Shown here: piece by piece, positions 1-59,485 of the stretch
Numbering within the stretch: the first letter of the stretch is position 1
Layout: every line of letters begins with the position of its first letter
DNA from: Patescibacteria group bacterium
GTDB lineage: Bacteria > Patescibacteriota > Minisyncoccia > Minisyncoccales > CAZWNE01
Direction: 5' to 3'
Assembly (NCBI GenBank): GCA_038078735.1
Contig: JBBTTI010000001.1
Location: 20,830-84,829 of the forward strand
DNA: 64,000 bases
Notes under the pieces: model-generated
The model's input: the letters and a program-made list of their open reading frames with translations, nothing else
Database searches by the model: none
What the model was told of the DNA's origin: nothing
Translations under genes and position numbers: made by a program

Positions 1-1
1 A

Positions 2-250
2 GAAAAAGATTGGAAAGAAATGGGAGTCAAAAATCCCCAAGAAGTTATTAATTATTTAAAATCTTATCGTTGGTCTAGTTATTTAGACTGTATAGGAATT
101 GCCAATTTTCCCTCAGTAACGAAAAGAGATTTTTTAATGGAGCTTTTCGGCGGTTCGGCGAATATTAAAAAATTTATCGAGAGTCGCATTTTAGAGGGGT
201 CAGAGACGAAAAAGAGTTACGAAAAAATTAAAGATTTAGTTTTAGAATAA
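2..250 (+). CDS. C-terminal part of an IS200-like/REP-associated Y1 (HUH) transposase homologue; 5' end lies outside the window
   Basis: Frame is open from position 2. YRWSSYLDCIG...FLMELFG aligns with YPWSSYQDVAK...IILNQFS at the C-terminus of the full-length paralogue at 8231-8899. Confidence 0.55.
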   Translation, partial: EKDWKEMGVKNPQEVINYLKSYRWSSYLDCIGIANFPSVTKRDFLMELFGGSANIKKFIESRILEGSETKKSYEKIKDLVLE

Positions 251-252
251 AA

Positions 253-281
253 ATACAGGGGTTGCACCCCTGTATTTTTTA
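253..281 (+). terminator. Hairpin ATACAGGGG-TTGC-ACCCCTGTAT followed by a T-run; also a REP-like palindrome
   Basis: Perfect inverted repeat directly after the stop codon. Arms resemble the ATACAGAGA..TCTCTGTAT palindrome family (23487, 59044). Confidence 0.5.
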
Positions 282-314
282 AGAAATAAGATTGAGCTGT
301 GTTAGAATAAACAA

Positions 315-1175
315 ATGGAAGATAAAAATAAGCGTTTGATTATTATTGATTCAAATTCGGTTATTCATCGGGCTTTTCATGCCTTGCCGCCTTTAACCAA
401 TAAAAAAGGAGAGGTGGTCGGCGCGGTTTACGGATTTTTATTGGTCTTTTTTAAGGCTATAAAAGATTTCCAGCCGGATTATATTGCGGCTTGTTTTGAT
501 TTTCATGCGCCAACTTTCCGCCATAAAAAATTTAAAGAGTATAAAGCCAATAGACCGCATGCCCCCGAAGAACTTTATTCACAGATTCCTAAAGTTAAAG
601 AAGTTTTAAAAAGTTTTGGCGTCCCGATTTTTGAGAAGGAGGGTTTTGAAGCGGATGACATCATCGGCACGATCGCTTCTTTATCTCCGGTTGAAACAAT
701 TATTTTAAGCGGCGATGCGGATAATTTACAACTAGTTGACGCTAAAACTCAAGTTTATTTATTAAGAAAAGGAGTTAAAGATATAGTTTTATATAACAGA
801 AAAGCGGTAGAAGAAAAATACGGAGGATTAACCCCCGAACAGCTAGTTGATTTTAAAGGGTTGAGAGGAGATCCTTCAGATAACATCCCCGGCGTAGCCG
901 GAATAGGAGAAAAGACTGCCACGAGCTTAATTTTGGAATTCGGCGGACTGGATCTAATATATAATAATCTGGCCTTAATTACATCAAAAGTTGAGGAAAA
1001 ATTAATCCGAAATAAAGAGCAGGCATATTTAAGTCGGGAATTGGCCACGATCGAAAAAAAAGTTCCGATTGATTTTGACTTGGCAAAATGCAGTTTTATT
1101 GATTACAAACAGGATGCGGTTAGGGAAGCTTTAGAAAAATTAGGATTTCATAGTTTAATTTCCCGTTTATGGTAA
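315..1175 (+). CDS. Stand-alone 5'-3' exonuclease (Pol I N-terminal/FEN-like domain)
   Basis: IIDSNSVIHRAFHALP, FEADDIIGT, GDADNLQLV, LRGDPSDNIPGVAGIGEKTA (H3TH) motifs. Confidence 0.85.
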   Translation: MEDKNKRLIIIDSNSVIHRAFHALPPLTNKKGEVVGAVYGFLLVFFKAIKDFQPDYIAACFDFHAPTFRHKKFKEYKANRPHAPEELYSQIPKVKEVLKSFGVPIFEKEGFEADDIIGTIASLSPVETIILSGDADNLQLVDAKTQVYLLRKGVKDIVLYNRKAVEEKYGGLTPEQLVDFKGLRGDPSDNIPGVAGIGEKTATSLILEFGGLDLIYNNLALITSKVEEKLIRNKEQAYLSRELATIEKKVPIDFDLAKCSFIDYKQDAVREALEKLGFHSLISRLW

Positions 1176-1232
1176 AATATAAATAATGTAAAGGCCGGAA
1201 ATATTTTTATTTAATTAACAAATAATAAAATA

Positions 1233-2159
1233 ATGAAAAGCAAAATTGTTATTGCAGTTGTTATCGCTTTCATCCTTTCTTTGGGAGGTTTGTACCAAGG
1301 ATTTCAAAACGGAAACGAACTCAAAAACGGATTGACGAAATTGACCGAAAGAATAGACGCTGAGGCTCAAAGGTTGAATAAAAGAACCACTACTAACATT
1401 TATTCCGGCGAACCGGTTGGTTATGTTATTGAATTTGAAAACGGAACAACCTTTTATGTTTCCGGAGATACTGGTCCTATGGCCGACATGACGATAATAA
1501 GGGATTATTTTAAACCGGAAGTGGCTGTCTTGCCTATCGGCGGATTCTTCACTATGGGTCCCACGGAAGCGGCTTTTTCCGCCTCTTTAGTCAAGCCTCA
1601 AAATTATGTGATCCCATACCATTATGGCAGTTATCCGATGTTAACCCAAAATCCAATTGAATTTAAAGATGCTCTCAAAAAGTATGATTTAGCTGATCGT
1701 TTTCTGGCGCCAAAAAATGGCGAGGAAAAAAATATAATGGGAGTAAAATTTGTTTGGTTGGGGCACGCTTCGCTTTTATTAATTTCTCCGGAGGGGAAAA
1801 ATATTTTGATTGATCCTGCCACTCCATTAGGGGTGTTTCCGGAAAAATACAAGGACTTTTCCGCTTTTGGCAAAGTTGATTTGGTTTTATTAACCCACGG
1901 TCATCCTGATCACACGGTGATTTCAGATTTGAATAAATTGGGCAAGATGTATAATCCAATATTTATAGCGCCCTATGAGCTCGGCACTTGGGTCCAGGAA
2001 CGTATTAATTTTCCGGAGTCGGTTTTTGCCTTAGCCAATAAAGGAGCCAACATTACCGCTCAAGAATTTGCAAAAATAGGATATCCCGTGGAAAAAATAG
2101 GCAAAATTAAAATTTATTTAGTGCCTGCAAGCCATTCTTCTTCTGTTGCTCCGCAGTAG
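1233..2159 (+). CDS. Membrane-anchored MBL-fold metal-dependent hydrolase (UPF0173-like), apparently circularly permuted
   Basis: N-terminal TM helix. Then a C-half-like block (FYVSGDTG...LPIGGFFTMGP...IPYHYGS), followed by an N-half-like block (FVWLGHASLL...LLTHGHPDH...ASHSSS). Confidence 0.65.
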   Translation: MKSKIVIAVVIAFILSLGGLYQGFQNGNELKNGLTKLTERIDAEAQRLNKRTTTNIYSGEPVGYVIEFENGTTFYVSGDTGPMADMTIIRDYFKPEVAVLPIGGFFTMGPTEAAFSASLVKPQNYVIPYHYGSYPMLTQNPIEFKDALKKYDLADRFLAPKNGEEKNIMGVKFVWLGHASLLLISPEGKNILIDPATPLGVFPEKYKDFSAFGKVDLVLLTHGHPDHTVISDLNKLGKMYNPIFIAPYELGTWVQERINFPESVFALANKGANITAQEFAKIGYPVEKIGKIKIYLVPASHSSSVAPQ

Positions 2160-3930
2160 CAAATTTCTAATGAGAAAGTATTCATTATATGCTCTTCTTT
2201 TCGGCACCCTTGCGTTTTTAGGGCTGACGGTTTCGGTTACTCTTTATTTTTCTATTCAAAAAGAGCGGAATGAACTGACTAAAACGGCAATTTCAGAAAA
2301 AATAAATTTAGCGGAAGCCATCAATGAAACGGCATTTTCTTCGGCTTGGAAATTCCGAGTTTCTTCTATTCCCGGTATAGAAAATTTGTTTATTGGTCAA
2401 ATGGCTAAAGCCAAGGATGTTGTTTATATAAAAATTGTTGGGTTAGACGGCGCAGTTCGCCTAAGCAGTCTGAAAGATGAGGTGGGAGAAATAATTAAGG
2501 ATGCAGATATCCGGAGAGCGTTATCATCCCAGGAAACAGTCACCAAAGACAGTTTTTTCAATGGAAAAGAAATTAAATTAATTATCTATCCGACCCAAAG
2601 TAATAACGCTATTTTTATCGGTTTTTCTCTGCAAGGCATAAAAGATATTATAGCCAGGACCACCATTCAAAGCATTGTTTTAGGAATAGGGTCTTTGTTT
2701 TTTATCCTTCTGGTGTTGTTTTTTGTTTTTCGCTCCATAACTAATCCTATCAAAAAAATAATTACTGTTTGCCGGGAGATTTCTAAGGGAAATTTAAACG
2801 CCAAAATTAAAGTGGGGTCAAGAAATGAAATTGGGGAGTTGGCAGATACTTTTAACGAAACAATCGGTAATTTGAGGCAGTCTTATATCGCCCTAAAGGA
2901 AGAAAAAGATAAAACTTTATCTATAATCACTAATTTTAGCGATGGCTTATTGGTTTTTGACAATGAAAATAAACTTTCTTTGATAAACCCTCAAGCTGAA
3001 TTATTTTTACAAATTAAAGCCGAAGAAATATCGAAAAGGTTGATGTCGGAACTTAAAAAACAGCCGGGGTTTAAGTTATTAATAGAAACACTAGAAAGAG
3101 AGTCTTTAAAAGTCTTTAGGAAAGAATTATTAATTAGGGATGATTTAATATTGGAGGTTTCAACTATTTTCATGGTAAGCGGAGGAGAAAAATTAGGGAT
3201 ATTAGTCATTCTGCACGATGTTACCCGCGAGAAAACAATTGAGCGGTTGAAGACAGAGTTTGTTTCGCTTGCCGCCCACCAATTAAGAACTCCTCTTTCC
3301 GGAATGAAGTGGGCTTTAAAGATGATGCTGGATGGAGATGCCGGAAAAATAACCAAAAAACAAACAGAATTAACTAATAAGGTTTATGAGTCGAATGAAA
3401 GAATGATTGATTTAGTAAACGATCTTTTAAATGTTGCCCGCATTGAAGAGGGAAGATATATTTTTAAACCGATATTCGCCGACATGGAAACGATTATTCA
3501 ATTTGTAGTTAACTCTTATAAAGAACAGGTTGAAAAGAAGGGCCTCGGGTTGGAATTCAAAGTATTGGAAAAAGAATTACCGCAAGTTAAAATAGATGTA
3601 GAGAAAATGAGGTTGGCTGTTCAAAATCTTATAGATAATGCCATAAAATATACTGTTTCCGGCGGCAGCATAACAGTTTCTTTGCGGCGCGCTGGCGAGA
3701 GTATAGAATGTCAGATTTCTGATACCGGTGTTGGTATACCGGACGATCAAAAAGCAAGGGTGTTTTCAAAATTCTTTCGGGGGACCAATGCGGTAAAAAT
3801 AGAAACGGATGGTTCCGGGCTCGGCCTCTTTATCGCTAAAAATATTATTGAAGCTCATGGCGGGAAAATTTGGTTTCAATCAGAAGAAGGCAAGGGGACG
3901 GCATTCTGTTTTTCTTTGCCGATTAAATAA
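2146..3930 (+). CDS. Sensor histidine kinase (TM, HAMP, PAS-like, HisKA, HATPase_c)
   Basis: H-box FVSLAAHQLRTPLS. N/G boxes NLIDNAIKYT, DTGVGIP, GSGLGLFIAK. Start could be the internal ATG near 2170. Confidence 0.85.
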   Translation: MLRSSKFLMRKYSLYALLFGTLAFLGLTVSVTLYFSIQKERNELTKTAISEKINLAEAINETAFSSAWKFRVSSIPGIENLFIGQMAKAKDVVYIKIVGLDGAVRLSSLKDEVGEIIKDADIRRALSSQETVTKDSFFNGKEIKLIIYPTQSNNAIFIGFSLQGIKDIIARTTIQSIVLGIGSLFFILLVLFFVFRSITNPIKKIITVCREISKGNLNAKIKVGSRNEIGELADTFNETIGNLRQSYIALKEEKDKTLSIITNFSDGLLVFDNENKLSLINPQAELFLQIKAEEISKRLMSELKKQPGFKLLIETLERESLKVFRKELLIRDDLILEVSTIFMVSGGEKLGILVILHDVTREKTIERLKTEFVSLAAHQLRTPLSGMKWALKMMLDGDAGKITKKQTELTNKVYESNERMIDLVNDLLNVARIEEGRYIFKPIFADMETIIQFVVNSYKEQVEKKGLGLEFKVLEKELPQVKIDVEKMRLAVQNLIDNAIKYTVSGGSITVSLRRAGESIECQISDTGVGIPDDQKARVFSKFFRGTNAVKIETDGSGLGLFIAKNIIEAHGGKIWFQSEEGKGTAFCFSLPIK

Positions 3931-3942
3931 GGAAATAATTAT

Positions 3943-5076
3943 ATGGCTCAAAGTATTTTTTCAAAATCGTCAGGCGATGCAGAGTCGTTTCCTCAAGACT
4001 TAGAGGGCCGGACTCGTTTTCCGCTTTTTGCCAAAATTATTGTCGTCTTTGTTCTTTTTGGGTTTTTGCCGTTATTAATCGCAACGAAAATTCAAGCGGG
4101 CTTTTTGATTTTACTTTTTATCGCGGCAATTTCCATCGGTATTTTTCTCTCAGTGCGGATTGTTATCAGACCTTTAAAAAAGTTATTAAACGGCGTACGT
4201 CAGCTTGCCCGCGGAGAGTATGGCGCGAAAATAGAAATAAAATCCAACGATGAGTTTTCGATATTCGCTGATTATTTTAATGAGATTAGTCAAAAATTAA
4301 AAATAACCATTGAAAGAGAAAAAGCTATTTCACAAATGAAGTCAGAATTTATTACTTTAGCCGCCCATCAGCTTCGCACTCCCCTTTCGGCGATAAAATG
4401 GGTGATGAAGATGATGATTAACGGCGATGTCGGCAAACTCACCCAAGAGCAAAAAGATTTTTTACAAAAAGGCTATGATTCCAACGAGAGAATTATTGGA
4501 TTGGTTAATGATATGCTGGATGTCGCTAAAATTGAAGAAGGGAGGTTTGGATATAATTTTGAATTTGGCGATATTGTCGCTGTGATTAAAGAGACATTAA
4601 ACGAACAGGTTCTCCGGTTCCAGGAGAAAAATATTAAAGTTATCTTTGAGCCGCCTGAAAAAGATTTCCCTAAAATAAAAATGGACTCCCAAAAAATTAA
4701 ATTAGCTCTGAAAAATATTTTAGAGAATTCTATTAATTACACTCTGGCCGGAGGGCAAATCCAAATAAATGCTGAACCATCTGGCAGAGATTATCTTGAA
4801 ATAAAAATACAAGACACGGGGGTGGGCATCCCCCATAGCCAGATGCCGCGGCTTTTTTCTAAATTTTTCCGCAGCGAGAATGTTATTAAAATGCAGACCG
4901 AAGGTTCCGGTCTAGGTCTTTTTATTGTTAAAAATATAATTAAAAGACATGGCGGTGAAATTTGGATAGAGTCAGAAGAGGGTAAGGGCACGACTGTTCA
5001 TTTTACCTTGCCATTTAAGGAAAGATTGATTCCGGAGAAAGAAGAGGCGCTTGAAGAATTTATCATCGGCTTTTAG
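3943..5076 (+). CDS. Sensor histidine kinase (TM, HAMP, HisKA, HATPase_c)
   Basis: FITLAAHQLRTPLS, NILENSINYT, DTGVGIP, GSGLGLFIVK. Paralogue of the upstream kinase. Confidence 0.85.
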   Translation: MAQSIFSKSSGDAESFPQDLEGRTRFPLFAKIIVVFVLFGFLPLLIATKIQAGFLILLFIAAISIGIFLSVRIVIRPLKKLLNGVRQLARGEYGAKIEIKSNDEFSIFADYFNEISQKLKITIEREKAISQMKSEFITLAAHQLRTPLSAIKWVMKMMINGDVGKLTQEQKDFLQKGYDSNERIIGLVNDMLDVAKIEEGRFGYNFEFGDIVAVIKETLNEQVLRFQEKNIKVIFEPPEKDFPKIKMDSQKIKLALKNILENSINYTLAGGQIQINAEPSGRDYLEIKIQDTGVGIPHSQMPRLFSKFFRSENVIKMQTEGSGLGLFIVKNIIKRHGGEIWIESEEGKGTTVHFTLPFKERLIPEKEEALEEFIIGF

Positions 5077-5123
5077 TTTGGTTTATTTGTGTTTTTTTTA
5101 TAATAAAGTAAAATATATAATAT

Positions 5124-5489
5124 ATGATAAATGTTCTCGTTGTTGAAGACGATAAATTTTTAAGGGAATTAATTTCTCAAAAACTCATTAAGGATGGTTT
5201 CAATGTCCATGGCGCCATTGACGGAGAAGAAGGATTAAAGATGGTAAAAGAATTCAACCCTTCTATTATTCTGCTTGATTTAATTTTGCCCGGCATGGAT
5301 GGTTTTGAAGTTCTTTCCCGAATTAAAAACGATCCCTCCATAGCGTCAATCCCGGTGATTGTTCTCTCTAATCTAGGCCAGAAAGAAGACGTGGAAAGGG
5401 GGCTGAAACTGGGCGCGGTTGATTACCTGATTAAAGCCCATTTTACTCCCGGCGAAATTATTGAGAAAGTGAGAAGTATTCTGAAATAG
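5124..5489 (+). CDS. Single-domain response regulator (CheY-like receiver)
   Basis: VLVVEDD...LLDLILPGMDG...LSNLG...DYLIKA receiver motifs; no output domain. Confidence 0.85.
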   Translation: MINVLVVEDDKFLRELISQKLIKDGFNVHGAIDGEEGLKMVKEFNPSIILLDLILPGMDGFEVLSRIKNDPSIASIPVIVLSNLGQKEDVERGLKLGAVDYLIKAHFTPGEIIEKVRSILK

Positions 5490-5548
5490 TCAAAGAGATA
5501 AATCTCTTTTCCATCTTCGTTTTTAATAAATTAAAAACTTGATAAATA

Positions 5549-6424
5549 ATGCCGGAACTTCCCGAAGTTGAAACTATTGTCAGAAGTTTGAATAAAACCG
5601 TCCTCGGTCGAAAGATCGAGGATGTTTGGTCTGATACAAAGAAAATAATCAAGCGCCCTCAAGGTTTTGGGCAGTTTAAAAAAGAAATTATTGGCCGAAA
5701 AATTGAGAGCGTTAAAAGGCGGGCAAAAAATATTTTAATCGGACTGTCGGGGAATAAAATTTTGCTTATTCATCAAAAAATGACAGGGCATTTATTGGCA
5801 GGGAGGTGGAAACTGGAAGATGGCAGATGGAAGCCCCTATTAAAAGGTCCGCTTGAAGATTCGGTTAATTTATATATTCATTTGATGTTTCAACTAAGCG
5901 GTGGAGGATTGATGCTCGCCCTTTCGGATTTAAGAAAGTTTGCCAAAGTAGAATTTTTGGATAAAGAAATTATAGAAAAAGAATTAAGCTCTTTAGGGCC
6001 GGAGCCTTTGGAAAAAAGTTTTACTTTTGAAAAATTCAAAGATTGTTTTAAGAATAAAAAAGGCAAAATAAAACAGATTTTAATGAAGCCGGAGATTATT
6101 GCCGGTATCGGCAATATCTATTCAGACGAAATTTTATGGGAGGCGAAAATCCATCCCTCCACTCAAGCGCAAATACTATCGAGGCCGAACCTCAATAGTG
6201 TTTACAGGGCGATGAAAAAGATTTTAAATAAAGCTATTGAATTACAGGGTGATAGTATGAGCGATTATCGTTTAATTACAGGAGAGAAGGGCGGTTATCA
6301 AAATGTCCAAAAAGTTTACCGGCAGGAAGGCAAACATTGTCCTCGCAAAGATGGCGGCGTTATAGAAAGATTAAAAATAGGCGGTCGTTCTGCTCACTTT
6401 TGTCCTATCTGCCAACGCATTTAA
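5549..6424 (+). CDS. mutM: Formamidopyrimidine-DNA glycosylase
   Basis: N-terminal MPELPEVET, H2TH region, C-terminal zinc finger CPRKDGG...RSAHFCPICQ. Confidence 0.9.
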   Translation: MPELPEVETIVRSLNKTVLGRKIEDVWSDTKKIIKRPQGFGQFKKEIIGRKIESVKRRAKNILIGLSGNKILLIHQKMTGHLLAGRWKLEDGRWKPLLKGPLEDSVNLYIHLMFQLSGGGLMLALSDLRKFAKVEFLDKEIIEKELSSLGPEPLEKSFTFEKFKDCFKNKKGKIKQILMKPEIIAGIGNIYSDEILWEAKIHPSTQAQILSRPNLNSVYRAMKKILNKAIELQGDSMSDYRLITGEKGGYQNVQKVYRQEGKHCPRKDGGVIERLKIGGRSAHFCPICQRI

Positions 6425-6455
6425 ATGTTAGTCAAAAATTGTTAAAATAAATCTG

Positions 6456-6476
6456 CTTAGGGACTTAGTCCCTAAG
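6456..6476. repeat. REP-like 21-nt palindrome CTTAGGGACT-T-AGTCCCTAAG (left flank of the truncated RAYT-like gene)
   Basis: Perfect 10-bp arms. A near copy is at 6922-6942 and a compensatory variant lies inside leuS at 46811-46831. Confidence 0.8.
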
Positions 6477-6485
6477 GAGAAATTA

Positions 6486-6926
6486 GTGAGCTTTGTATGT
6501 TATTGTTTCAATCCCAATCATTACCATTTTCTTTTACAGCAAATCTCAGACCGTGGTATAGAAAAATTTATGCACCGTTTAGGGTCGGGATACACAACTT
6601 ATTTTAATAAAAAATATAATCGCAACGGTTCTTTATTCCAGGGAACATTTAAGGCGAATCAGATTGATTCGGATGAATATTTATTATATGTCAGCGCTTA
6701 CGTTAATCTAAATAATAGAATTCACAAAATAGAAAAAGAAGTTTTTGATTCAAGCTGGGGTGAGTATTCTGAGGGTATTAAGAAAAATAGTGGTTTTTGT
6801 GATAAAAATATTATTCTAAATCAATTTGCCAATTTTCAGGAATATAAATCTTTTTCAGAAAACGTTGTGGCGACTGCTAGGGAAAGAAAGGAATTAGAAA
6901 AAATATTAAAAATCGATCTTACTTAG
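6486..6926 (+). CDS. N-terminally truncated IS200-like/RAYT Y1 transposase homologue
   Basis: PNHYHFLL (HUH) and YVSAYVNLN (Tyr motif) align with residues ~85-222 of the 8231-8899 paralogue. The first ~85 aa are absent. GTG start. Confidence 0.6.
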   Translation: MSFVCYCFNPNHYHFLLQQISDRGIEKFMHRLGSGYTTYFNKKYNRNGSLFQGTFKANQIDSDEYLLYVSAYVNLNNRIHKIEKEVFDSSWGEYSEGIKKNSGFCDKNIILNQFANFQEYKSFSENVVATARERKELEKILKIDLT

Positions 6927-6942
6927 GGACTTAGTCCCTTAA
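6922..6942. repeat. REP-like palindrome CTTAGGGACTTAGTCCCTTAA (right flank; overlaps the stop codon)
   Basis: Core AGGGACTTAGTCCCT is identical to 6456-6476. Confidence 0.75.
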
Positions 6943-6944
6943 AT

Positions 6945-7892
6945 ATGTTAATTTTTATTTACGGCGAGGATAACTTCAGGTCAAAACAGAAATTGCAGGA
7001 AATAATTGAGAAATATAAAAAAGTCCATAAAAACGGGCTTAATTTAATTATCATAGATTGCCAAAGCGCTGATTTTGTTGACTTTAAACGCGAGTTGGAA
7101 ACAGTTTCAATGTTCAAAGAAAAAAAACTTATTATTTTAAAAAACGCTATTTCTTCTGTTAAGTTCGAAGATCCGCTTTTGGATTGCAAAGATAGTTTAT
7201 TAAAATCTGAAGAAAATACGATTGTTTTTTTTGAAGACGGCAAGGCAGACTCGCGCAAGTCTTTTTTTAAATTTTTGGAGAAAAATTCAAAATCTCAAGA
7301 ATTCAAACCTCTTTCCTCTGCGCAATCGATGGTTTTCGCGAAGAAAGAATTCGAAAAATACGGAGCCAAAATCCAAAAAGAGGCTCTGGAGCAGCTGGTC
7401 ATTTTTTGCGCTAATGACCTTTGGCGGCTTTCCAACGAAATTAAAAAATTGGCCGCTTTTAAACTTAAAGATCAAAATTCGGAAATAGGGTTAAAAGACG
7501 TGGAGCAAATGGTCAATAGCGAAATTGAAACCGATATATTCAAGACAATTGACGCTATCGCCAGAAAAAATAAAAAACAGGCCCTGGAATTACTTCATAA
7601 ACATCTGGAAGACGGCGACTCCGTGCCTTATCTTCTTTCAATGATAAACTTTCAGTTCCGCAATCTTTTAATTATCAAAGACCTTTTAGAAAGAAGAGTG
7701 CAGTATCAATTAATCGCCCAAAAATCAGGCCTTCATCCATTTGTGGTTAGAAAAAGTTATGAGCTTTGCCAAAGATTCACTTTTCTTGAAATAAAAAAAA
7801 TCTACCAAAAAGTATTTGAGGCAGATGTTAATATTAAAACTGGCAGAATAGAACCGCAAACAGCCCTTGATTTGCTTATTTCAGGGATTTAG
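6945..7892 (+). CDS. holA: DNA polymerase III delta subunit
   Basis: Size and the N-terminal IFIYGEDNFR...KL pattern are typical of HolA; clamp-loader delta-like helical C-terminus. Confidence 0.7.
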   Translation: MLIFIYGEDNFRSKQKLQEIIEKYKKVHKNGLNLIIIDCQSADFVDFKRELETVSMFKEKKLIILKNAISSVKFEDPLLDCKDSLLKSEENTIVFFEDGKADSRKSFFKFLEKNSKSQEFKPLSSAQSMVFAKKEFEKYGAKIQKEALEQLVIFCANDLWRLSNEIKKLAAFKLKDQNSEIGLKDVEQMVNSEIETDIFKTIDAIARKNKKQALELLHKHLEDGDSVPYLLSMINFQFRNLLIIKDLLERRVQYQLIAQKSGLHPFVVRKSYELCQRFTFLEIKKIYQKVFEADVNIKTGRIEPQTALDLLISGI

Positions 7893-8142
7893 CTAAAGAC
7901 TTGGCTAAGCGGGATTTTTTTCTGTCAGCGGTATTTTTTTTAATTACTCCAACCTTAGCTGACTTATCAAGGATTTTAAAAACTTGGGGCATGAGATTTT
8001 TCGCTTCGTCTGTCTTTTTTTGAACGATCAAAATTTTCACCCCTTTCAAGAGGTTTTTTAATTTTTCTTTATAAATTGAATTTTGAGCTTTTCGTCTTAA
8101 ACTTTGTCTGAAAGCTTTTTTAGCCGATGATGTAATTGCCAT
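7876..8142 (-). CDS. rpsT: 30S ribosomal protein S20
   Basis: MAITSSAKKAFRQSLRRKAQN..., basic 88-aa protein. Confidence 0.9.
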   Translation of the reverse strand: MAITSSAKKAFRQSLRRKAQNSIYKEKLKNLLKGVKILIVQKKTDEAKNLMPQVFKILDKSAKVGVIKKNTADRKKSRLAKSLAKSLK

Positions 8143-8187
8143 ATTTGCTATATTATCATACTTTATTTTTTAATCAAGTATTCGTTA

Positions 8188-8214
8188 ATTGTTAGACGCT
8201 CAGCGTCTAACAAT
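8188..8214. repeat. REP-like palindrome ATTGTTAGACGCT-C-AGCGTCTAACAAT
   Basis: Perfect inverted repeat. The 21-nt core GTTAGACGCTCAGCGTCTAAC recurs identically at 8921-8941 on the other side of the RAYT gene. Confidence 0.85.
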
Positions 8215-8230
8215 CCTCCGTTGAGTGTTT

Positions 8231-8899
8231 TTATTCGAGAAAGAGATCTTTAATTTTTATTTTTGCGGTGCTTGTTTCTACAAATTTATAATAAGTATTA
8301 GTTTTAGAAAATTGATTAAGAATAATATTTGGCTTCAAGAGTTCTCCCCATCTGTTATTTTTAGCCACATCTTGATAGCTCGACCAAGGATAATTTATTT
8401 CTTTACTTTCCCATTGCTTTAATTCTCTTGGGTTGCGGTGAATATATGCGGAGAGATAAAGAAGTTGTTCGTCTGTTTCCACCGGAATAGCTCGAAAAGC
8501 TCCCTGGAAAAGATGTCCTTCTTTCTTATATTTTGCATTGAAGTATTTGGCGTAGCTAGTTTGTAGCCGCTGAAGGTAGTAAGAAATTCCATCACAATTA
8601 TTAGTTTTTTCTTGGACGAGGAGATGAAAATGATTAGGCATAATAGCGAAGGAGTTAAGTTCTATCTTTTTTGTCTCCACTATTTTCTGAATTATTTCTC
8701 GCGGTACATTAAACGTTGAGTATTTAATAAAATAAGAAGATTGGCGACCTATGTTGTAAAAGGGAATTGTTGCTTGGCAAAAAAGAGTAGAAAATAAAAA
8801 TCTCACATAGTCCTTGCTATCAATAAAGATAGATTCCCCATTATTGCTTCTGTTGCAAATATGATAGTACGAATTTTGGGCAAATTTAATTTTTCTCAT
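8231..8899 (-). mobile_element. Full-length IS200-like / REP-associated tyrosine transposase (RAYT-type Y1 HUH enzyme)
   Basis: PNHFHLLV (HUH), LLYLSAYIHRNP (catalytic Tyr helix). Bracketed by identical 21-nt palindromes. Confidence 0.8.
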
Positions 8900-8920
8900 A
8901 TATATCGTTTATTATACTAT

Positions 8921-8941
8921 GTTAGACGCTCAGCGTCTAAC
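8921..8941. repeat. REP-like palindrome GTTAGACGCTCAGCGTCTAAC
   Basis: Identical to 8191-8211. Confidence 0.85.
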
Positions 8942-8954
8942 ATTTAAAACCCCG

Positions 8955-8984
8955 TTGACACGACTTCTCACAAAGTGATAGTAT
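8955..8984 (+). promoter_or_regulatory. Sigma70-like promoter (TTGACA ... TG-n-TAGTAT)
   Basis: Consensus -35 at 8955-8960 and an extended -10 about 18 nt downstream. It precedes a ~125-nt leader and the 9111 ORF. Confidence 0.5.
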
Positions 8985-9110
8985 ATTCTAATACAGCACC
9001 TTGGCAATTTGGATCGAAATAAAATAAATGGGTGCTAGGAAAGGATGATGGCAATGACTGTCTAAAATTGCGACGTTAGATCCGGTTTAAGTCTAAAAAG
9101 GAGGAACCTC

Positions 9111-11051: not shown

Positions 11052-11381
11052 ATGTTTTATGTATATTTATTAAAAAGCATAAAAGACGAGAGTTTTTATA
11101 TAGGACAAACGGACGATATTAAGAAGAGACTTCAGAGACATAACAGCGGATTTGTCCAGACGACTAAAAATAGAGTGCCATGGATAGTGTTGGGGTATGA
11201 ACAATATGATACGCGGGAAAAAGCAAGATGGCGCGAATATGAGCTGAAACATAATTATTTAAAAAAGAAAAAATTTATCGAAAGATTTTGTCCCCATAGC
11301 TTAATGGATAAAGTAGCGGCCTCCGAAGCCGCGGATCGAGGTTCGACTCCCCGTGGGGGCATAATTATTATATGCAATTAA
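11052..11381 (+). CDS. GIY-YIG nuclease superfamily protein (COG2827/UPF0213-like)
   Basis: MFYVYLLKS...FYIGQTDDIKKRLQRHNSG...REYELK. The track ORF starts earlier (10890), but that part is the tRNA-like/GC-rich module. The frame has no stop until 11381, so it reads through tRNA-Arg. Confidence 0.75.
   Translation: MFYVYLLKSIKDESFYIGQTDDIKKRLQRHNSGFVQTTKNRVPWIVLGYEQYDTREKARWREYELKHNYLKKKKFIERFCPHSLMDKVAASEAADRGSTPRGGIIIICN
11290..11361 (+). tRNA. tRNA-Arg (anticodon CCG), 72 nt, CCA not encoded
   Basis: Manual cloverleaf: GTCCCCA/TGGGGGC acceptor (one G-U), D-arm GCTT-AATGGATA-AAGT, anticodon arm GCGGC-CTCCGAA-GCCGC, T-arm CGAGG-TTCGACT-CCCCG (one A-C mismatch). Confidence 0.8.
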
Positions 11382-14462: not shown

Positions 14463-15416
14463 TCCTCTGATTGTTAAAACCGTCCCGTTCGGGGCGGTTT
14501 TAATTTCGAATTTATTATCAATAAATTTTTCAATTATTCGCATATTGATTTGGCAGCGGTCGGTAACTTCCGAAACCGTAACTCGTGATTTGCCGCTGGC
14601 CATGGCTAAATAGGGTAAAATTTGATCAGCCATATATTTATCTAAACAGGCGTTTGATTTTTGTTCTTTTAACAATTCTAGGGCCGCTTCTTTACCAATG
14701 TCTTCAGCTTTTTTCCCTAATTTACCTAACCCGTCGGCGCCGATTATTGTGTTTTGAAATTCGGCAATTAAGCAAATTTGGCTGCCCGGGCATTGAGCAG
14801 GATAATATTCTATTTTTTCTTCCATCGGTAAATTTAATCCTCCCAAAATTTCTCTTGCTCCGGTGATCTGTTTTTCTGCCGTTTTTTTCTCTTCGTCGGA
14901 TTCTGAAGCCCCGGAAATTACCAAGACTTTTTTTAAATCCCCTCTCTCGGTAAGGTTCAAATTTTTAAGCTTTGAAGGAAAGATATTCACTTCTACTTTG
15001 GCTCCTCCTTCCGGATAATAGCCTCTTTTTAAAATATTAATTTCAATTTTAACTCCCATTTTTTCTAAAATCTTTAAAAAAACATAGCGAAAATAATCAA
15101 TGGTTGGCGAAAAAAATGTGTCAGTCGTCCCGCCTCCAAAAATAATTTTTATTGGTACAGGGGAGAACAGGGCGGGTAAAATCAGGGCCTGTAAAACCAA
15201 AACAATACTCTCGGCCGCCGGAATATTTACGGAGAACCGTTCTCCGTAAATATCTCCGGGATAAAAACAATTACCTTCTATCCGGCCATTGCAAAGCCGG
15301 GCTAATGTTTGAATATTTAAAAGGTCTTGGGGCAAGACATTAAAAATCCGGCAAGGTTTTTTAGTTACTGCCGATAAAGCGCAGACTAATCCTGCTGGGC
15401 CATCAATTTCAATCAT
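14442..15416 (-). CDS. RNA 3'-terminal phosphate cyclase-like protein (RtcA/Rcl1 fold)
   Basis: MIEIDG..., GYYPEGGAKVEV, YMADQILPYLAMASG. The N-terminal GEGGGQ-type motif and the expected His in the C-terminal motif are not obvious. Confidence 0.6.
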   Translation of the reverse strand: MIEIDGPAGLVCALSAVTKKPCRIFNVLPQDLLNIQTLARLCNGRIEGNCFYPGDIYGERFSVNIPAAESIVLVLQALILPALFSPVPIKIIFGGGTTDTFFSPTIDYFRYVFLKILEKMGVKIEINILKRGYYPEGGAKVEVNIFPSKLKNLNLTERGDLKKVLVISGASESDEEKKTAEKQITGAREILGGLNLPMEEKIEYYPAQCPGSQICLIAEFQNTIIGADGLGKLGKKAEDIGKEAALELLKEQKSNACLDKYMADQILPYLAMASGKSRVTVSEVTDRCQINMRIIEKFIDNKFEIKTAPNGTVLTIRGLSLKSV

Positions 15417-23486: not shown

Positions 23487-23513
23487 ATACAGAGAACGGG
23501 TCTCTGTATGTTT
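23487..23513. repeat. Palindromic repeat ATACAGAGA-ACGGG-TCTCTGTAT(GTTT), intergenic copy
   Basis: 27 nt identical to 59044-59070 inside tsaD. Confidence 0.85.
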
Positions 23514-27061: not shown

Positions 27062-27067
27062 CAAGTG

Positions 27068-27420
27068 TGGAGGTGGCGAGTGTGAGCTCGCATCCAAGAA
27101 TTATTCTAAAGATAGTTCTACAAATGTATCTCATTTGCTTTAAGCAAGAAGTTTAAAATGAGAAAAATCTTCCTACTTTGAGTTCTTTGATTGTTCAATA
27201 GTTTTTCTAAACCCGCTGAAAAGTTATCTATCTCGCTGATATAACACCCCCTATAGCACCTAGCGAGAATCCGAGAAGGGGATGCCGCCTTAAGCTAAAG
27301 CTAAAGCGGGTTGTTTGTTGAATAGATTAGCATTTATTCTAGCTTCTCAAAGTTTTATGAGATTTGAGAAAACTCAAATTGCCTATCTTTATCAAATTCC
27401 CGTCGAAGCAATTCACCCCC
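27068..27420 (-). ncRNA. ssrA: tmRNA (ssrA), ~353 nt, CCA not encoded
   Basis: 5' GGGGGTGAATTGCTTCGACGGGAATTTG. Tag frame GCT AAT CTA TTC AAC AAA CAA CCC GCT TTA GCT TTA GCT TAA (ANLFNKQPALALA*). 3' T-arm-like GCGAG..CTCGC, then CACCTCC-A pairing with the 5' end, including G3-U. Confidence 0.85.
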
Positions 27421-28511: not shown

Positions 28512-28517
28512 CAGAAA

Positions 28518-28550
28518 GAGCCTCGAGTGTCCTACCAACACTCGAGGCTC
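28518..28550 (+). terminator. Stem-loop terminator (12-bp stem GAGCCTCGAGTG/CACTCGAGGCTC)
   Basis: Perfect stem 7 nt after the stop; T-rich tail. Confidence 0.7.
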
Positions 28551-28593
28551 TAACTATTTTTTAATCACTTAGAAACGGAGTTTCTAAGTGTAT

Positions 28594-28614
28594 GTTGGAC
28601 ATTCAACGTCTAAC
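28594..28614. repeat. Degenerate REP-like palindrome GTTGGACATTCAACGTCTAAC
   Basis: Related to the GTTAGACG..CGTCTAAC family (8191, 8921, 38606). Confidence 0.5.
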
Positions 28615-38605: not shown

Positions 38606-38626
38606 GTTAGACGCCAGACGTCTAAC
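38606..38626. repeat. REP-like palindrome GTTAGACG-CCAGA-CGTCTAAC
   Basis: Same arms as the palindromes flanking the RAYT gene at 8231-8899. Confidence 0.75.
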
Positions 38627-38648
38627 ATCCATAAGAAACTTATTGAAT

Positions 38649-44906: not shown

Positions 44907-47279
44907 ATGGAACAATACAACCCGCAGAGAATTGAAGCGAAATGGCAAAAATTTTGGGAGAAGAAAGGGTTTTATAAAACTGAAGATTCGAGTAAAAAAC
45001 CTAAAAAATATATTTTAGTTGAATTTCCTTATCCTTCTGGCGACGGCCTTCATGTCGGCCACGTCAGAAGTTATTCTGCTTTAGACGCGGTCTGCCGAAA
45101 AAAAAGAATGGAAGGGTTTAATGTTTTGTTCCCGATTGGCTGGGATGCTTTTGGTTTGCCGACAGAAAATTATGCCATAAAAAATGGCATCCATCCGAGC
45201 GCGGCCACGGGAAAAAATATAGCTAATTTTAAAAGACAGCTTAAGAGTTTGGGTCTGTCATTTGATTGGTCAAGGGAGATAAATACAACTGATCCCGAAT
45301 ATTATAAATGGACTCAATGGATCTTTTTAAAACTTTTTGAGAAAGACATGGCTTATCAAGCGGAAATTCCGGTTAACTGGTGCCCTTCTTGCAAAATTGG
45401 TTTGGCTAATGAAGAAGTAGTTGATGGAGCTTGCGAAAGATGTCATACGCCAGTCGGAGAGAAAACATTAAAGCAATGGATGATACGAATTACCAAGTAT
45501 GCCGACAGATTGATAGACGATTTGAAGAATGTTGATTTCCCCGAGCGCGTTAAATCCCAAGAAATAAATTGGATAGGAAAATCAGAAGGCGCAGAAATTA
45601 AATTTAAAATTGTCATAGGTGACACCTATGACAATTTACCAGTTTTTACAACAAGGCCAGATACGTTATTCGGCTGTACTTATTTAGTTTTATCGCCGGA
45701 ACATTCGTTAATCGAAAATTTAAAATTAAAAATTGAAAATTGGGACGAAGTCCAAAAATATCGCAAAGAAGCGAAAAAGAAAAGCGAGCTGGAAAGAACG
45801 GAATTAACTAAAGATAAAACCGGTGTGGAATTAAAGGGAATAAAAGCGATAAATCCGGCAAACAATGAAGAAATTCCTGTTTTTGTGGCAGATTATGTTT
45901 TATCTTCTTATGGAACCGGCGCCATTATGGCGGTTCCGGCTCATGATCAGCGCGATTTTGATTTTGCCAAAAAATATAATCTGCCGATTAAAATTGTTGT
46001 TGACGATAAGGAACGCTTGGTTGATTCTGGAAAATTTAACGGGATGGAGTCAGATGTTGCTAAATGGGAAATTACTAAGTTTGTTGGCGGGAAGAAAACA
46101 ATAAATTACAAATTAAGGGATTGGGTTTTTTCAAGGCAACATTATTGGGGAGAGCCCATTCCAATTATTCATTGCTTGAAATGCGGCCAAGTGCCGGTGC
46201 CGGAAAAAGATTTGCCGGTAGAGCTTCCTTACGTTGAAAAATACCAGCCAACAGGAACCGGCGAATCGCCCTTGGCAGTTATCACGGATTGGGTTAATGT
46301 TAAATGTCCGAAATGCGGCGGCCAGGCTAAGCGGGAAACTGACACTATGCCTAATTGGGCCGGATCTAACTGGTATTATTTAAGATATCTAGATCCGAAA
46401 AATAATAAAGCCTTGGCTGATGTTAAAAAAATAAAATACTGGATGCCTCTTGATTGGTATAACGGCGGTATGGAACATACCACTTTGCATCTTTTATATT
46501 CCAGATTTGTTTACAAATTTTTATATGACATCGGGATAGTGCCGTCTTCCGAGCCTTACCAAAAAAGAACTTCCCATGGCATGGTTTTAGCCGAAGACAA
46601 CAGGAAAATGTCCAAGTCTTTTGGCAATGTCATTAACCCGGACGATATTGTCAAAAAATTTGGCGCTGATTCATTACGTCTTTATGAAATGTTTATGGGG
46701 CCATTTGATCAGGCAATTGCTTGGAGCACGAACGGCTTAAGAGGTTGTTACAGATTTTTAAATAAAGTTTGGCAATTACAATTTAAAGTTAAAAGAGACT
46801 TAGTCTCCCACTTAGAGACTAAGTCTCTAAGTCGCTTGTTACATCAAACGATTAAAAAGGTGACGGAGGATATAGAAAGTTTAAATTATAATACGGCAAT
46901 TTCAGCCTTGATGATTTTAGTTAATCAATCAGACCAAATAACAAAAAATAGTTTTGAAATTTTATTGAAATTGCTGGCGCCATTTGCGCCGCATATTGCT
47001 GAGGAATTATGGAGCAATTTAGGCAATAAAAATTCTATTTTTGAAGAATCTTGGCCGAAATACGACGAAAAATTAATGCAGGAAGATAAAATCAACTTGA
47101 TTATTCAGATTAACGGCAAATTCCGAGATAAGATTGAGGTCGAGGCTGAAATCTCCGAAGGCGAAGTTAAAAAATTGACTTTAAATCGGGAAAAAGTTAA
47201 ACAATGGGTAGCAGGTAAAGAGATTAAAAAAATAATTTTTATTAAAAATAAACTAATCAATATTGTATGTGCGGAATAG
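44907..47279 (+). CDS. leuS: Leucyl-tRNA synthetase
   Basis: PYPSGDGLHVGHV (HIGH), KMSKSFGN, CP1 editing TTRPDTLFG. Confidence 0.95.
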   Translation: MEQYNPQRIEAKWQKFWEKKGFYKTEDSSKKPKKYILVEFPYPSGDGLHVGHVRSYSALDAVCRKKRMEGFNVLFPIGWDAFGLPTENYAIKNGIHPSAATGKNIANFKRQLKSLGLSFDWSREINTTDPEYYKWTQWIFLKLFEKDMAYQAEIPVNWCPSCKIGLANEEVVDGACERCHTPVGEKTLKQWMIRITKYADRLIDDLKNVDFPERVKSQEINWIGKSEGAEIKFKIVIGDTYDNLPVFTTRPDTLFGCTYLVLSPEHSLIENLKLKIENWDEVQKYRKEAKKKSELERTELTKDKTGVELKGIKAINPANNEEIPVFVADYVLSSYGTGAIMAVPAHDQRDFDFAKKYNLPIKIVVDDKERLVDSGKFNGMESDVAKWEITKFVGGKKTINYKLRDWVFSRQHYWGEPIPIIHCLKCGQVPVPEKDLPVELPYVEKYQPTGTGESPLAVITDWVNVKCPKCGGQAKRETDTMPNWAGSNWYYLRYLDPKNNKALADVKKIKYWMPLDWYNGGMEHTTLHLLYSRFVYKFLYDIGIVPSSEPYQKRTSHGMVLAEDNRKMSKSFGNVINPDDIVKKFGADSLRLYEMFMGPFDQAIAWSTNGLRGCYRFLNKVWQLQFKVKRDLVSHLETKSLSRLLHQTIKKVTEDIESLNYNTAISALMILVNQSDQITKNSFEILLKLLAPFAPHIAEELWSNLGNKNSIFEESWPKYDEKLMQEDKINLIIQINGKFRDKIEVEAEISEGEVKKLTLNREKVKQWVAGKEIKKIIFIKNKLINIVCAE
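46795..46831. repeat. Two tandem REP-like palindromes inside leuS (GAGACTTAGTCTC; CTTAGAGACT-A-AGTCTCTAAG)
   Basis: The second differs from the RAYT-flanking 6456-6476 palindrome only by a compensatory G/C to A/T arm change and the central base. Confidence 0.8.
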
Positions 47280-52840: not shown

Positions 52841-52861
52841 GTTAAACATTCAATGTCTAAC
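52841..52861. repeat. REP-like palindrome GTTAAACATTCAATGTCTAAC (preceded by a duplicated GTTAAACATT)
   Basis: AT-shifted variant of the GTTAGACG..CGTCTAAC family; partner copy at 53690-53710. Confidence 0.6.
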
Positions 52862-53689: not shown

Positions 53690-53710
53690 GTTAAACATCC
53701 GATGTCTAAC
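53690..53710. repeat. REP-like palindrome GTTAAACATCCGATGTCTAAC
   Basis: Same family as 52841-52861. Confidence 0.6.
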
Positions 53711-58466: not shown

Positions 58467-59485
58467 AAATTTTAGCCATAGATACATCTTGTGACGACAC
58501 CGCAATCGCCGTATTAGAAATTAGAAATTTGAAATTAGAAATTTTGTCTAACGTCGTGTCGTCGCAAGTGAAACTTCATGCTAAATATGGAGGGGTTTAT
58601 CCTATGTTGGCCAAGAGAGAGCATCTGAAAAATTTACCTCTTGTTTTTAAGCGCGCCCTTCGACAGGCTCAGGGTAAACTATCTGATATAGATTATGTCG
58701 CGGTGACCGTCGGCCCGGGGCTTGAACCTTGCCTATGGCAAGGGATTAATTTTGCCAAAGAGCTGTCAGAGAAACTAAAAAAACCATTAATTTCAGTCAA
58801 TCACATAGAGGGCCACATCTTGGCCAATTTAATTGAGGGGAATCGGATTCCACTCAAATTACCGGCTATCTGTTTGGTTGTTTCCGGGGGGCATACACAG
58901 CTGATTTTAATGAAAGGAATCGGGAAATACAGATTGGTTGGCGAAACGAGAGACGACGCCGCTGGTGAATGCTTTGACAAAGCTGCTCGGATTTTGGGGC
59001 TAGGTTACCCGGGCGGCCCCATAATTTCTAAATTAGCAAAAACATACAGAGAACGGGTCTCTGTATGTTTACCGAGGCCGATGATGTATACGAAAGACTA
59101 TGATTTTAGTTTTTCTGGGTTAAAAACGGCAGTTTTGTATAAAACTAAAGAATTTAAAAAAATAAACTCTAAAATAAAAACTGAATTCTGCCACGAAATC
59201 CAACAAGCGATTATTGATGTTTTAATTAAAAAAACCATAAAAGCAGCTAAAGATTTCAGGGTAAAATCAATAATCTTAGGTGGCGGTGTCACGGCTAATC
59301 GAGAGTTAAGAAAACAATTTGGAGAAAGAATTAATAAAGAAATCCCGGATACTAAATACTTGATACCAGATACTAAATACTCGACTGACAACGCCGCTAT
59401 GATCGCAGTCGCAGCTTATTTTCACAGAAACAAAAAAGTTAAAAACTTTCAAAACATCAAAGCAAATGGTAATCTAAGTTTATGA
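58463..59485 (+). CDS. tsaD: tRNA N6-adenosine threonylcarbamoyltransferase
   Basis: MKILAIDTSCDDTA, VNHIEGH, GGHTQL, GYPGGP, FSFSGLKT, STDNAAMIA. Confidence 0.95.
   Translation: MKILAIDTSCDDTAIAVLEIRNLKLEILSNVVSSQVKLHAKYGGVYPMLAKREHLKNLPLVFKRALRQAQGKLSDIDYVAVTVGPGLEPCLWQGINFAKELSEKLKKPLISVNHIEGHILANLIEGNRIPLKLPAICLVVSGGHTQLILMKGIGKYRLVGETRDDAAGECFDKAARILGLGYPGGPIISKLAKTYRERVSVCLPRPMMYTKDYDFSFSGLKTAVLYKTKEFKKINSKIKTEFCHEIQQAIIDVLIKKTIKAAKDFRVKSIILGGGVTANRELRKQFGERINKEIPDTKYLIPDTKYSTDNAAMIAVAAYFHRNKKVKNFQNIKANGNLSL
59044..59070. repeat. Palindromic repeat ATACAGAGA-ACGGG-TCTCTGTAT(GTTT), in-frame copy inside tsaD
   Basis: 27/27 identical to intergenic 23487-23513. Encodes TYRERVSVC between the conserved GYPGGP..SKLA and PRPM blocks. 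Confidence 0.85.

Follow-up and report, generated by a model that had tools for sequence, protein, structure and literature searches.

The closest described relatives of the system considered here are the REPtrons, in which a repetitive extragenic palindrome (REP)-associated tyrosine transposase (RAYT) occurs together with REPs and bacterial interspersed mosaic elements (BIMEs) (PMC6006769, PMC3479197, PMC5581495). Our principal comparators among them are the E. coli TnpA-REP protein (RayT/YafM), whose structure 4ER8 shows it bound to a REP hairpin, subclasses 2.2 and 2.5 of Quentin et al. 2018 and RAYT groups 2 and 3 of Bertels. In the classification of Quentin et al. a Y---NP motif at the catalytic tyrosine marks class 2, the RAYT side, of the Y1 (single-tyrosine HUH) nucleases (PMC6006769). 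Nearly all descriptions of REP/RAYT systems draw on complete genomes of Proteobacteria, Cyanobacteria and Bacteroidetes, and in the literature searched we found no paper on them in Patescibacteria or the Candidate Phyla Radiation (CPR). Here we analyze a stretch of 64,000 nucleotides (hereafter the window) from a 143-kb contig of a patescibacterial metagenome-assembled genome (MAG) from Hainich groundwater, close to Ca. Nealsonbacteria, for which an original prediction had proposed a REP/RAYT-like system of three Y1 transposase homologs, each flanked by its own type of palindrome. The flanking palindromes, their covariation with the adjacent protein, the presence of solo copies and the RAYT-like fold of the proteins all support this proposal, and we conclude that these loci probably represent a REPtron-like system of Patescibacteria, comprised of Y1 nucleases and their own hairpins as putative sites of single-stranded DNA (ssDNA) cleavage.

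Throughout, we refer to the hairpin-forming palindromes upstream of, inside and downstream of a Y1 gene as H1, H2 and H3 (Table 1). As predicted, the full-length gene of the window, copy 1 (P0001), lies between two exact copies of the 21-nt palindrome GTTAGACGCTCAGCGTCTAAC, 19 and 21 nt from the ends of its open reading frame (ORF); both have C as their center on the plus strand and are hence direct copies. A scan with a protein profile over one genome per species, which yielded 543 confirmed stretches of which 80 loci were kept, revealed that this arrangement is the rule. Of 83 genes that could be evaluated, 69 have a 15-mer with at most 2 mismatches in common between the 150 nt on either side of the gene (50 exactly), as against 28 of 300 mechanically called control ORFs from the same loci (0 of 300 exactly), and a stricter test requiring a perfect stem recovered 25 of 84 Y1 genes and 0 of 567 controls. 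The shared words are palindromes that differ between genes, and they define near-perfect hairpins with arms of 9-15 bp and a loop of 1-5 nt. H1 ends a median of 22 nt ahead of the start codon and H3 begins a median of 4 nt past the stop; an overlap with the stop codon is seen in 14 of 48, with some ORFs (e.g. P0063 and P0117) reading on into it. Folded as ssDNA, the intact hairpins of the window reach -11 to -13 kcal/mol (z -6 to -7). The three palindrome types also greatly exceed the numbers expected from dinucleotide shuffles of the window: type 1 (GTTRRAC-N7-GTYYAAC) has 6 sites versus 0.02, type 2 (CTTAGRRAC-N3-GTYYCTAAG) 4 versus 0.02 and type 3 (ATACAGRG-N7-CYCTGTAT) 3 versus 0.03. With shuffle expectations of about 0.02 and the same locus present in six independent assemblies, chance or an assembly artifact could be rejected.

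Table 1. Y1 genes and hairpins of the window (positions are those of the window; a dot marks features given without strand)
Feature	Sequence	Position	Strand	Evidence and remarks
Y1 (HUH) nuclease copy 1 (P0001), full-length, 222 aa		8231..8899	-	Pfam, NCBIfam, alignment
H3 of copy 1, 19 nt past stop codon	GTTAGACGCTCAGCGTCTAAC	8191..8211	.	fold -11.9 kcal/mol, z -7.3
H1 of copy 1, 21 nt ahead of ATG	GTTAGACGCTCAGCGTCTAAC	8921..8941	.	sequence, ssDNA fold
Decayed H2 remnant of copy 1, encodes IKYSTFN	ATTAAATACTCAACGTTTAAT (gene strand)	8708..8728	.	14/21 positions match flank hairpin
Y1 copy 2, N-terminally truncated		6486..6926	+	Pfam Y1_Tnp E 8e-7; alignment with relatives
H2 of ancestral copy-2 gene, in frame, encodes LRDLVPK, now at 5' edge of truncated copy	CTTAGGGACTTAGTCCCTAAG	6456..6476	.	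alignment; fold -11.1 kcal/mol
H3 of copy 2, degenerate, overlaps stop codon	CTTAGGGACTTAGTCCCTTAA	6922..6942	.	2 mismatches (…CCCTTAA); weak fold -4.5 kcal/mol
Y1 copy 3, C-terminal 83 codons of 240-aa gene, start left of window		1..250	+	complete in L002
H3 of copy 3	ATACAGGGGTTGCACCCCTGTAT	253..275 (249-279 with A/T extension)	.	ssDNA fold -13.4 kcal/mol, z -7.3
Type-3-like solo hairpin, intergenic	ATACAGAGAACGGGTCTCTGTAT	23487..23509	.	
Type-2-like solo hairpin	CTTAGAAACGGAGTTTCTAAG	28568..28588	.	
Type-1-like solo hairpin, in three-hairpin cluster 28517-28614	GTTGGACATTCAACGTCTAAC	28594..28614	.	
Solo intergenic hairpin, cognate of P0123 (rpoC-ftsK locus, same MAG)	GTTAGACGCCAGACGTCTAAC	38606..38626	.	
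Solo hairpin, in frame within LeuRS coding sequence, cognate of P0207	TGTCATAGGTGACACCTATGACA (core)	45607..45637	.	
Type-2-like hairpin within LeuRS coding sequence	CTTAGAGACTAAGTCTCTAAG	46811..46831	.	compensatory G-C to A-T change vs 6456
Type-1-like solo hairpin, left of MNT/HepT pair, 5'-arm duplication just upstream	GTTAAACATTCAATGTCTAAC	52841..52861	.	
Type-1-like solo hairpin, right of MNT/HepT pair	GTTAAACATCCGATGTCTAAC	53690..53710	.	
23-nt hairpin identical to 23487, in frame within TsaD coding sequence		59044..59066	.	

The two hairpins flanking one gene evolve in concert, differing by a mean of 1.0 nt, and hairpins of different genes differ by 3.1, 7.7, 9.4 and 11.1 nt in successive bands of rising protein divergence. 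Hairpin and protein divergence are correlated (Mantel Spearman r 0.34), a value reached by 0 of 2000 permutations. The palindrome arms thus covary with the adjacent protein, and this, along with paralog-specific hairpin variants, bears out the proposed pairing of each paralog with a hairpin family of its own. Among the type-1 paralogs the outer arms GTTAGAC and GTCTAAC have remained identical despite the divergence of the proteins. In P0022 the palindrome is imperfect, and its copies on the two sides of the gene are exact reverse complements of each other, implying that the two copies are maintained as copies of one sequence rather than just as some hairpin.

The proteins themselves, which are currently annotated simply as 'transposase', point in the same direction. 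Copy 1 matches the Pfam Y1_Tnp domain (PF01797; 47 bits, E 3e-12) and displays an NHFH motif at residues 89-92, the catalytic Y152 within YIHRNP, an LFQG motif and a WSSY tail. Its paralogs (222-247 aa) contain NHFH or NHYH, LFQG, YIHRNP or YIFTNP, and WSSY, with N89, H90, H92 and Y152 being invariant across the alignments, and both copies 1 and 3 possess the class-2 form of the tyrosine motif. For the five full-length paralogs the NCBIfam RAYT model outscores the IS200 model (35-47 versus 16-20 bits). Searches of the PDB by sequence were too weak to rank structures (E 0.28 with a single sequence; about 19 bits for TnpA-REP and ISDra2 alike with a profile), and a comparison of folds was therefore needed. 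An AlphaFold (AF2) model of P0001 built with 62 homologs has a pLDDT of 91.4, and its best PDB match in Foldseek is the hairpin-bound TnpA-REP structure (E 1e-5, TM score 0.66 on the target), followed by the ISDra2 and IS608 TnpA proteins (TM score ~0.55). Protein identity among the paralogs of one genome is 35-72%, and the type-1 paralogs show a nonsynonymous to synonymous substitution ratio (dN/dS) of 0.06-0.12 at dS values of 1.3-3.4, which are saturated and make the ratio a rough one. Given this identity, low dN/dS and saturated dS, we interpret the paralogs as old, functional duplicates. The proteins are therefore RAYT-like by fold, with intact motifs, and under purifying selection, in keeping with the proposal that they lack an affinity to IS200 TnpA.

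At least 7 Y1 genes occur in this one genome of about 0.7 Mb, namely P0001, P0016, P0022, P0123, P0124 and copies 2 and 3, the five numbered genes being assigned to a single MAG on account of their consecutive NCBI accessions; the contig of a further gene, P0207, comes from the same sample and has the same coverage. Their neighborhoods are unrelated and of a housekeeping nature (rpsT/mur ligase, PBP/dnaN, secA, rpoC/ftsK and ribosomal-protein genes), and the contigs of loci L002 and L007 share no overlap.

The hairpins also occur away from Y1 genes, as the original prediction had expected. In the window, positions 38605-38627 are identical in 23 of 23 positions to the downstream hairpin of P0123, which is on another contig of the same MAG; a solo copy of the copy-1 palindrome had been proposed here, and a solo hairpin is indeed present, but its loop (CCAGA) departs from copy 1 and its cognate gene is P0123. 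Likewise, 45607-45637 contains the 23-nt core of the P0207 hairpins, and in L007 positions 8632-8658 form a solo copy of the P0016 hairpin. The predicted degenerate forms at 28594, 52841 and 53690 exist and are type-1-like, with compensatory changes (GCT/AGC, ATT/AAT, ATC/GAT) distinguishing their inner stems and that of 38606. To these we add family members at 28568, 46811, 23487, 59044 and 45607. The loci from GTDB genomes contain 19 extra cognate hairpin copies in 673 kb, with a chance estimate well below one. A metagenome scan with the type-1 pattern TGTTAGACRYNNNRYGTCTAACA returned 80 loci. Counting only hairpins whose surrounding sequence extends for 900 nt or more in each direction, 33 are solo, their loci being devoid of a Y1 gene, as compared to 11 that flank one; judged by crude ORF calls, 21 of the 33 fall between genes.

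Several palindromes of these families lie in frame within essential genes of the window, namely in those for LeuRS (45607-45637 and 46794-46832), TsaD (59040-59070), RtcA (15223-15253) and TatD (44382-44398). The hairpins in TsaD (encoding KTYRERVSVCL) and LeuRS (KIVIGDTYDNL) fill variable loops without a clear change in length relative to homologs. The possibility that the TsaD hairpin is an insertion adding length was rejected, as two homologs that lack the palindrome can be aligned across this site with a difference of 1 aa. Without a clear change in length, the hairpins in both genes look like replacements rather than simple insertions.

Inspection of the Y1 genes revealed a third, in-frame cognate hairpin, H2, which is a new feature. 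It is situated approximately 25-33 codons ahead of the HUH motif in at least 19 of the 48 genes for which a flank hairpin could be defined and in about 25 of all 81, which amounts to roughly a quarter to 40% of the family, and its carriers include distant clades with unrelated hairpin sequences. Perfect H1/H2/H3 triples are seen in P0207 and P0250, and the peptide encoded by H2 changes with the hairpin (e.g. VKHSVFN, VQHSMLD, ERGFASF, LQGSTLE). In copy 1 the H2 remnant retains no fold (z +0.4), and the orthologous gene in L011 has an intact H2 at the matching position. For copy 3, the fragment in the window has no Pfam or NCBIfam match on its own; however, it had been called partial only because the window ends there, and the complete gene in L002 matches Pfam Y1_Tnp, scores 35 bits with the NCBIfam RAYT model and contains the tyrosine motif YIFTNP. 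The palindrome predicted to follow copy 3 is present, and in L002 the same palindrome also lies upstream of the gene, with the variant ATACAGGGGTACGACCCCTGTA inside the coding sequence, where it encodes KKYRGTTPVNS.

The internal hairpin also changes the interpretation of copy 2, which had been described as a truncated gene bracketed by palindromes. Both palindromes are present, the left one exact and the right one with 2 mismatches. In copy 2 homology begins near position 6432, with some 70 codons missing at the N-terminus; full-length relatives of ~217 aa cover 99% of it. It retains an NHYH motif, has a tyrosine motif degraded to YVNLNN and scores 20.5 bits with the NCBIfam RAYT model. The window from 6432 on, hairpin included (LLRDLVPK), aligns with an internal LLRNLV[SP]K stretch of the full-length relatives, and P0250, with an identical H1/H2/H3 layout, serves as comparator. 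By this alignment the palindrome upstream of copy 2 corresponds to H2 and is an internal hairpin rather than a flank, and all of the gene beyond a few codons ahead of this hairpin has been lost. The stretch that separates the hairpin from the mutM stop codon (6425-6455, ATGTTAGTCAAAAATTGTTAAAA) resembles decayed type-1 half-arms.

The locus of copy 1 offers a further glimpse of the history of these elements. In L169 the order mur ligase, Y1, rpsT-holA is kept, with the Y1 protein 73% identical to copy 1 and its neighbors 58-72% identical, which fits vertical descent. In L134 the Y1 gene is absent, and a lone hairpin precedes the mur-ligase gene by 40 nt. The L011 locus has a mosaic structure: its positions 1130-2290, compared with 7850-9000 of the window, show rpsT-holA at ~99-99.5% identity and the Y1 gene with both hairpins at ~70-72% (dS of the Y1 gene versus copy 1 is 2.3), the identity breaking no more than a few bases from the outer edge of H3. 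Judged from these alignments, the break points to recombination with a junction at the hairpin, although the 2.5-kb contig may instead be chimeric. We infer that copy 2 and the solo hairpin of L134 may both be products of deletion between hairpins. Conversely, the hairpins could be an independent repeat family of other origin, into which Y1 cassettes simply tend to insert, much as REPs are targeted by some insertion sequences (IS): L134 has a solo hairpin where the window and L169 have hairpin-Y1-hairpin, and integration into a hairpin with its duplication would leave one copy per side. Yet this would leave unexplained both the covariation of protein and hairpin and the in-frame H2 that tracks the flanks across distant clades, and we regard it as very improbable.

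The same loci bear on the question of whether these are ordinary autonomous insertion sequences of the IS200/IS605 type, with the hairpins being the subterminal left and right ends of an element that transposes as a unit. The likeness to the TnpA systems of IS608 and ISDra2 includes the Y1 fold, hairpins that keep a short, constant distance to each end of the gene, on the same strand in the window as in the left and right ends of IS608, and a chemistry presumably acting on ssDNA hairpins; the multiple Y1 genes at unrelated sites in a small genome and the identity break at the outer edge of a hairpin in L011 could be read in the same way. On the other hand, IS200 proteins display Y---Q and DH[VI]H (PMC6006769) in place of the Y---NP and NH[FY]H seen here, and the IS200 model NF033573 falls far short of its cut-off of 55 bits. 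Active IS200 copies are mobile and near-identical (~99%), as opposed to the diverged paralogs (dS >1.3) at a locus that is syntenic in relatives. Further, the IS ends are asymmetric, often accompanied by tnpB and without dispersed solo hairpins, whereas here the two hairpins of a gene are identical and solo hairpins exceed flanking ones 3 to 1; a third, internal hairpin is no IS feature at all. We therefore consider transposition of an ordinary IS unit an unlikely account of the observations.

A different possibility is that the palindromes are regulatory elements, such as operators, terminators or mRNA stabilizers, recognized in double-stranded DNA or in RNA, whether by the Y1 protein or by some other factor, and not serving as cleavage substrates. 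Indeed, H1 of copy 1 overlaps a promoter-like TAGACG-17-TATAAT (8939..8911), H3 abuts or spans the stop codon in part of the family (14 of 48), in the type-3 hairpin a T-run comes after the GC stem, and the solo copies are mostly intergenic. However, identical hairpins are found within coding sequences (H2, LeuRS, TsaD), and the pairing of the entire arm down to the short loop would be unusual in an operator. Types 1 and 2 lack a T-run, and a role as intrinsic terminators found no support in a terminator scan, which was silent on these two types on the gene strand, flagged the 6456 hairpin only on the opposite strand and left 249-279 unflagged. Moreover, the protein is a conserved HUH nuclease with its catalytic tyrosine intact and under purifying selection. 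A purely regulatory role is thus quite improbable, though the positions of H1 at a promoter-like site and of H3 at the stop mean that part of the conservation could be regulatory.

This partial overlap with regulation is one of several points that weigh against a REPtron-like system, and they are best considered alongside the comparison with classical REPtrons. The similarities are the Y1 HUH fold, the class-2 tyrosine motif, a gene bracketed by its own palindromes, one hairpin family per paralog, dispersed and mainly intergenic solo copies, and the combination of low intragenomic identity, a syntenic locus and purifying selection (PMC6006769, PMC5581495). The following observations stand on the other side: 1) Classical RAYTs are flanked by inverted REPINs, whereas of the flanking pairs here 26 are direct, 18 inverted and 4 ambiguous, and those within the window are direct. 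2) The palindromes are short and near-perfect, with their feet (GTTAG, CTTAG, ATACAG) fully paired, and in none of the 48 hairpin pairs is there an unpaired conserved tetranucleotide or 5' GT[AG]G foot, the guide sequence by which canonical REPs are defined. 3) An exact hairpin type has only 2-4 copies in the ~100 kb of this genome that our counts cover, compared with tens to hundreds in classical systems. 4) The protein is about 60 aa longer and does not reach the 80-bit cut-off of the NCBIfam RAYT equivalog NF047646. 5) The left palindrome of copy 2 is, by the above alignment, internal and does not flank the gene. 6) Symmetric covariation of the arms would also fit a palindromic double-stranded operator bound by a dimer, and the mismatch spectrum (8 G·T versus 11 A·C) has no folded-strand bias, and hence does not separate a hairpin from a double-stranded palindrome. 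7) Formation of the hairpins in vivo, their binding, cleavage and rejoining, and an enzymatic origin of the deletions and the homogenization are steps that we infer. Two further differences, the conserved in-frame internal hairpin and the patescibacterial rather than proteobacterial host, set the system apart. Since the hairpins have no GT[AG]G foot, the proteins stay under the NF047646 threshold and copies per exact type are few in the ~100 kb counted, it is not a REPtron in the strict sense.

A further point against arises from subclass 2.1 (TIRYT), whose motif set, as reported, comprises NH[YF]H, FQ, Y[IV]HLNP and an SS tail in proteins of ~238 aa (PMC6006769). By a reading of motifs, our proteins appear nearest to this subclass: they share NH[YF]H, FQ rather than WQ, Y[IV]H.NP, the SS after the tyrosine helix, a length of ~220-240 aa and the presence of about two or more diverged copies per genome. 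Members of subclass 2.1 are reported to lack REP-like hairpins and to have long terminal inverted repeats (GGGG[AT][CG]A[CG]) and a C-terminal helix-turn-helix (HTH)-like domain (PMC6006769; Di Nocera et al. 2013, PMC3733652), whereas cognate hairpins are the rule here; Pfam detected no HTH domain in the Y1 proteins. Two other systems resemble the in-frame hairpins. In-frame REPs inside the tnpA-REP gene are known for subclass 2.4 of Cyanobacteria and Bacteroidetes only (PMC6006769), which shares with our loci a cognate palindrome within the nuclease gene that preserves the frame and symmetric 'double-foot' hairpins; here, by contrast, H2 occupies one fixed site upstream of the HUH motif, is common to distant clades and adds no extra length. 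Similarly, the Rickettsia palindromic elements and other intragenic REPs are palindromic repeats in frame within housekeeping genes (PMC3733652), but theirs add residues, unlike the hairpins in TsaD and LeuRS.

On the balance of these observations a REPtron-like system remains the explanation that we favor, and we propose the following mechanism for it. Each Y1 gene would encode a RAYT-like HUH/tyrosine ssDNA nuclease matched to its own near-perfect palindrome, which would fold into a hairpin while the DNA is single-stranded, for instance during replication. The cognate enzyme would bind the hairpin, cut alongside it by means of the catalytic tyrosine and rejoin the ends. Such cutting and rejoining could copy, move or overwrite hairpins, such that copies of one type stay alike, and might occasionally delete the DNA between two of them. 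One could go further and regard the arrangement of three hairpins around and within the gene (H1, 5' part, H2, catalytic part, H3) as a working self-editing cassette, in which the nuclease cuts and rejoins at any pair of cognate hairpins. A deletion between H1 and H2 or between H2 and H3 would then switch off its own gene, one between H1 and H3 would remove the gene and leave a solo hairpin, and loop-coding stretches of essential genes, such as those for LeuRS and TsaD, would be overwritten by hairpin sequence with their length unchanged. We view this extended proposal as rather unlikely.

Beyond these main features, we noted further arrangements of hairpins. In 22 of 83 cases from the metagenomes, one half-arm, in some instances along with part of the loop, is repeated directly at a distance of 2-5 nt from the hairpin; examples of such duplicates are seen at 52830-52861 of the window, upstream of 3438 in L096, downstream of 4687 in L091 and in the metagenome loci L114, L131, L152, L162 and L163. 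These duplicates could be either a footprint of copying or a feature of the target site. Close doublets of type-1 hairpins with spacers of 4-46 nt are found in L123, L126, L147, L164, L167 and L177, and unlike the inverted classical REPINs they are mostly direct, the one in L147 being inverted. An inverted doublet, GAGGTTCGGCCTC-CAAGG-GAGGCCGAACCTC, also occurs inside a ComEA-like ORF of L007 (968-998), and its unit matches the cognate hairpin of a distant homolog in L056. Downstream of the ORF at 28038-28511, the region 28517-28614 contains three different hairpins head to tail (a GC-rich 14-bp stem, a type-2-like and a type-1-like hairpin), and resembles a BIME-like mosaic. A nucleotidyltransferase (MNT)/HepT toxin-antitoxin pair (ORFs 52990-53274 and 53271-53612) lies between two type-1-like hairpins of the same orientation, an arrangement reminiscent of a hairpin-bounded cassette with non-Y1 cargo. 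A further palindrome family with the core GAGAAC-N(1-3)-GT(T/C)CTC is present at 15223, 23487, 44382, 44826 and 59044, and no Y1 partner for it was found in the sequence examined.

The remainder of the window (G+C 37.8%, with most genes on the plus strand) is unremarkable in its RNA genes, a tmRNA gene at 27065-27420 (minus strand) and a tRNA-Arg(CCG) gene at 11289-11362 (plus strand) both being ordinary. Searches of the window with Rfam at the gathering threshold recovered only the tmRNA and one tRNA, with no known RNA family at the hairpins; PADLOC gave no match to defense families, and PHROGs only a weak 'transposase' match among phage families.

These observations would extend REP/RAYT-type systems to the Patescibacteria, in an unusual three-hairpin form. 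A very large, CPR-wide clade of these RAYT-like genes, with >1200 and >2400 protein clusters in two sub-clades and 543 confirmed stretches in species-level genomes, follows the same rule of each gene having its own hairpin. The host has shed most non-essential genes and yet keeps its Y1 copies, and the persistence of at least 7 diverged copies under purifying selection in a minimal genome argues for either a role at the level of the host or an unusually durable genetic parasite. Their short, perfect hairpins and clear covariation provide natural matched pairs of protein and DNA for studying how Y1 enzymes read their targets, and the in-frame H2 is a rare instance of a coding sequence shaped by a constraint on DNA structure. 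Should the self-editing proposal prove true, these bacteria would harbor a resident ssDNA nuclease that rewrites coding DNA in a minimal genome.

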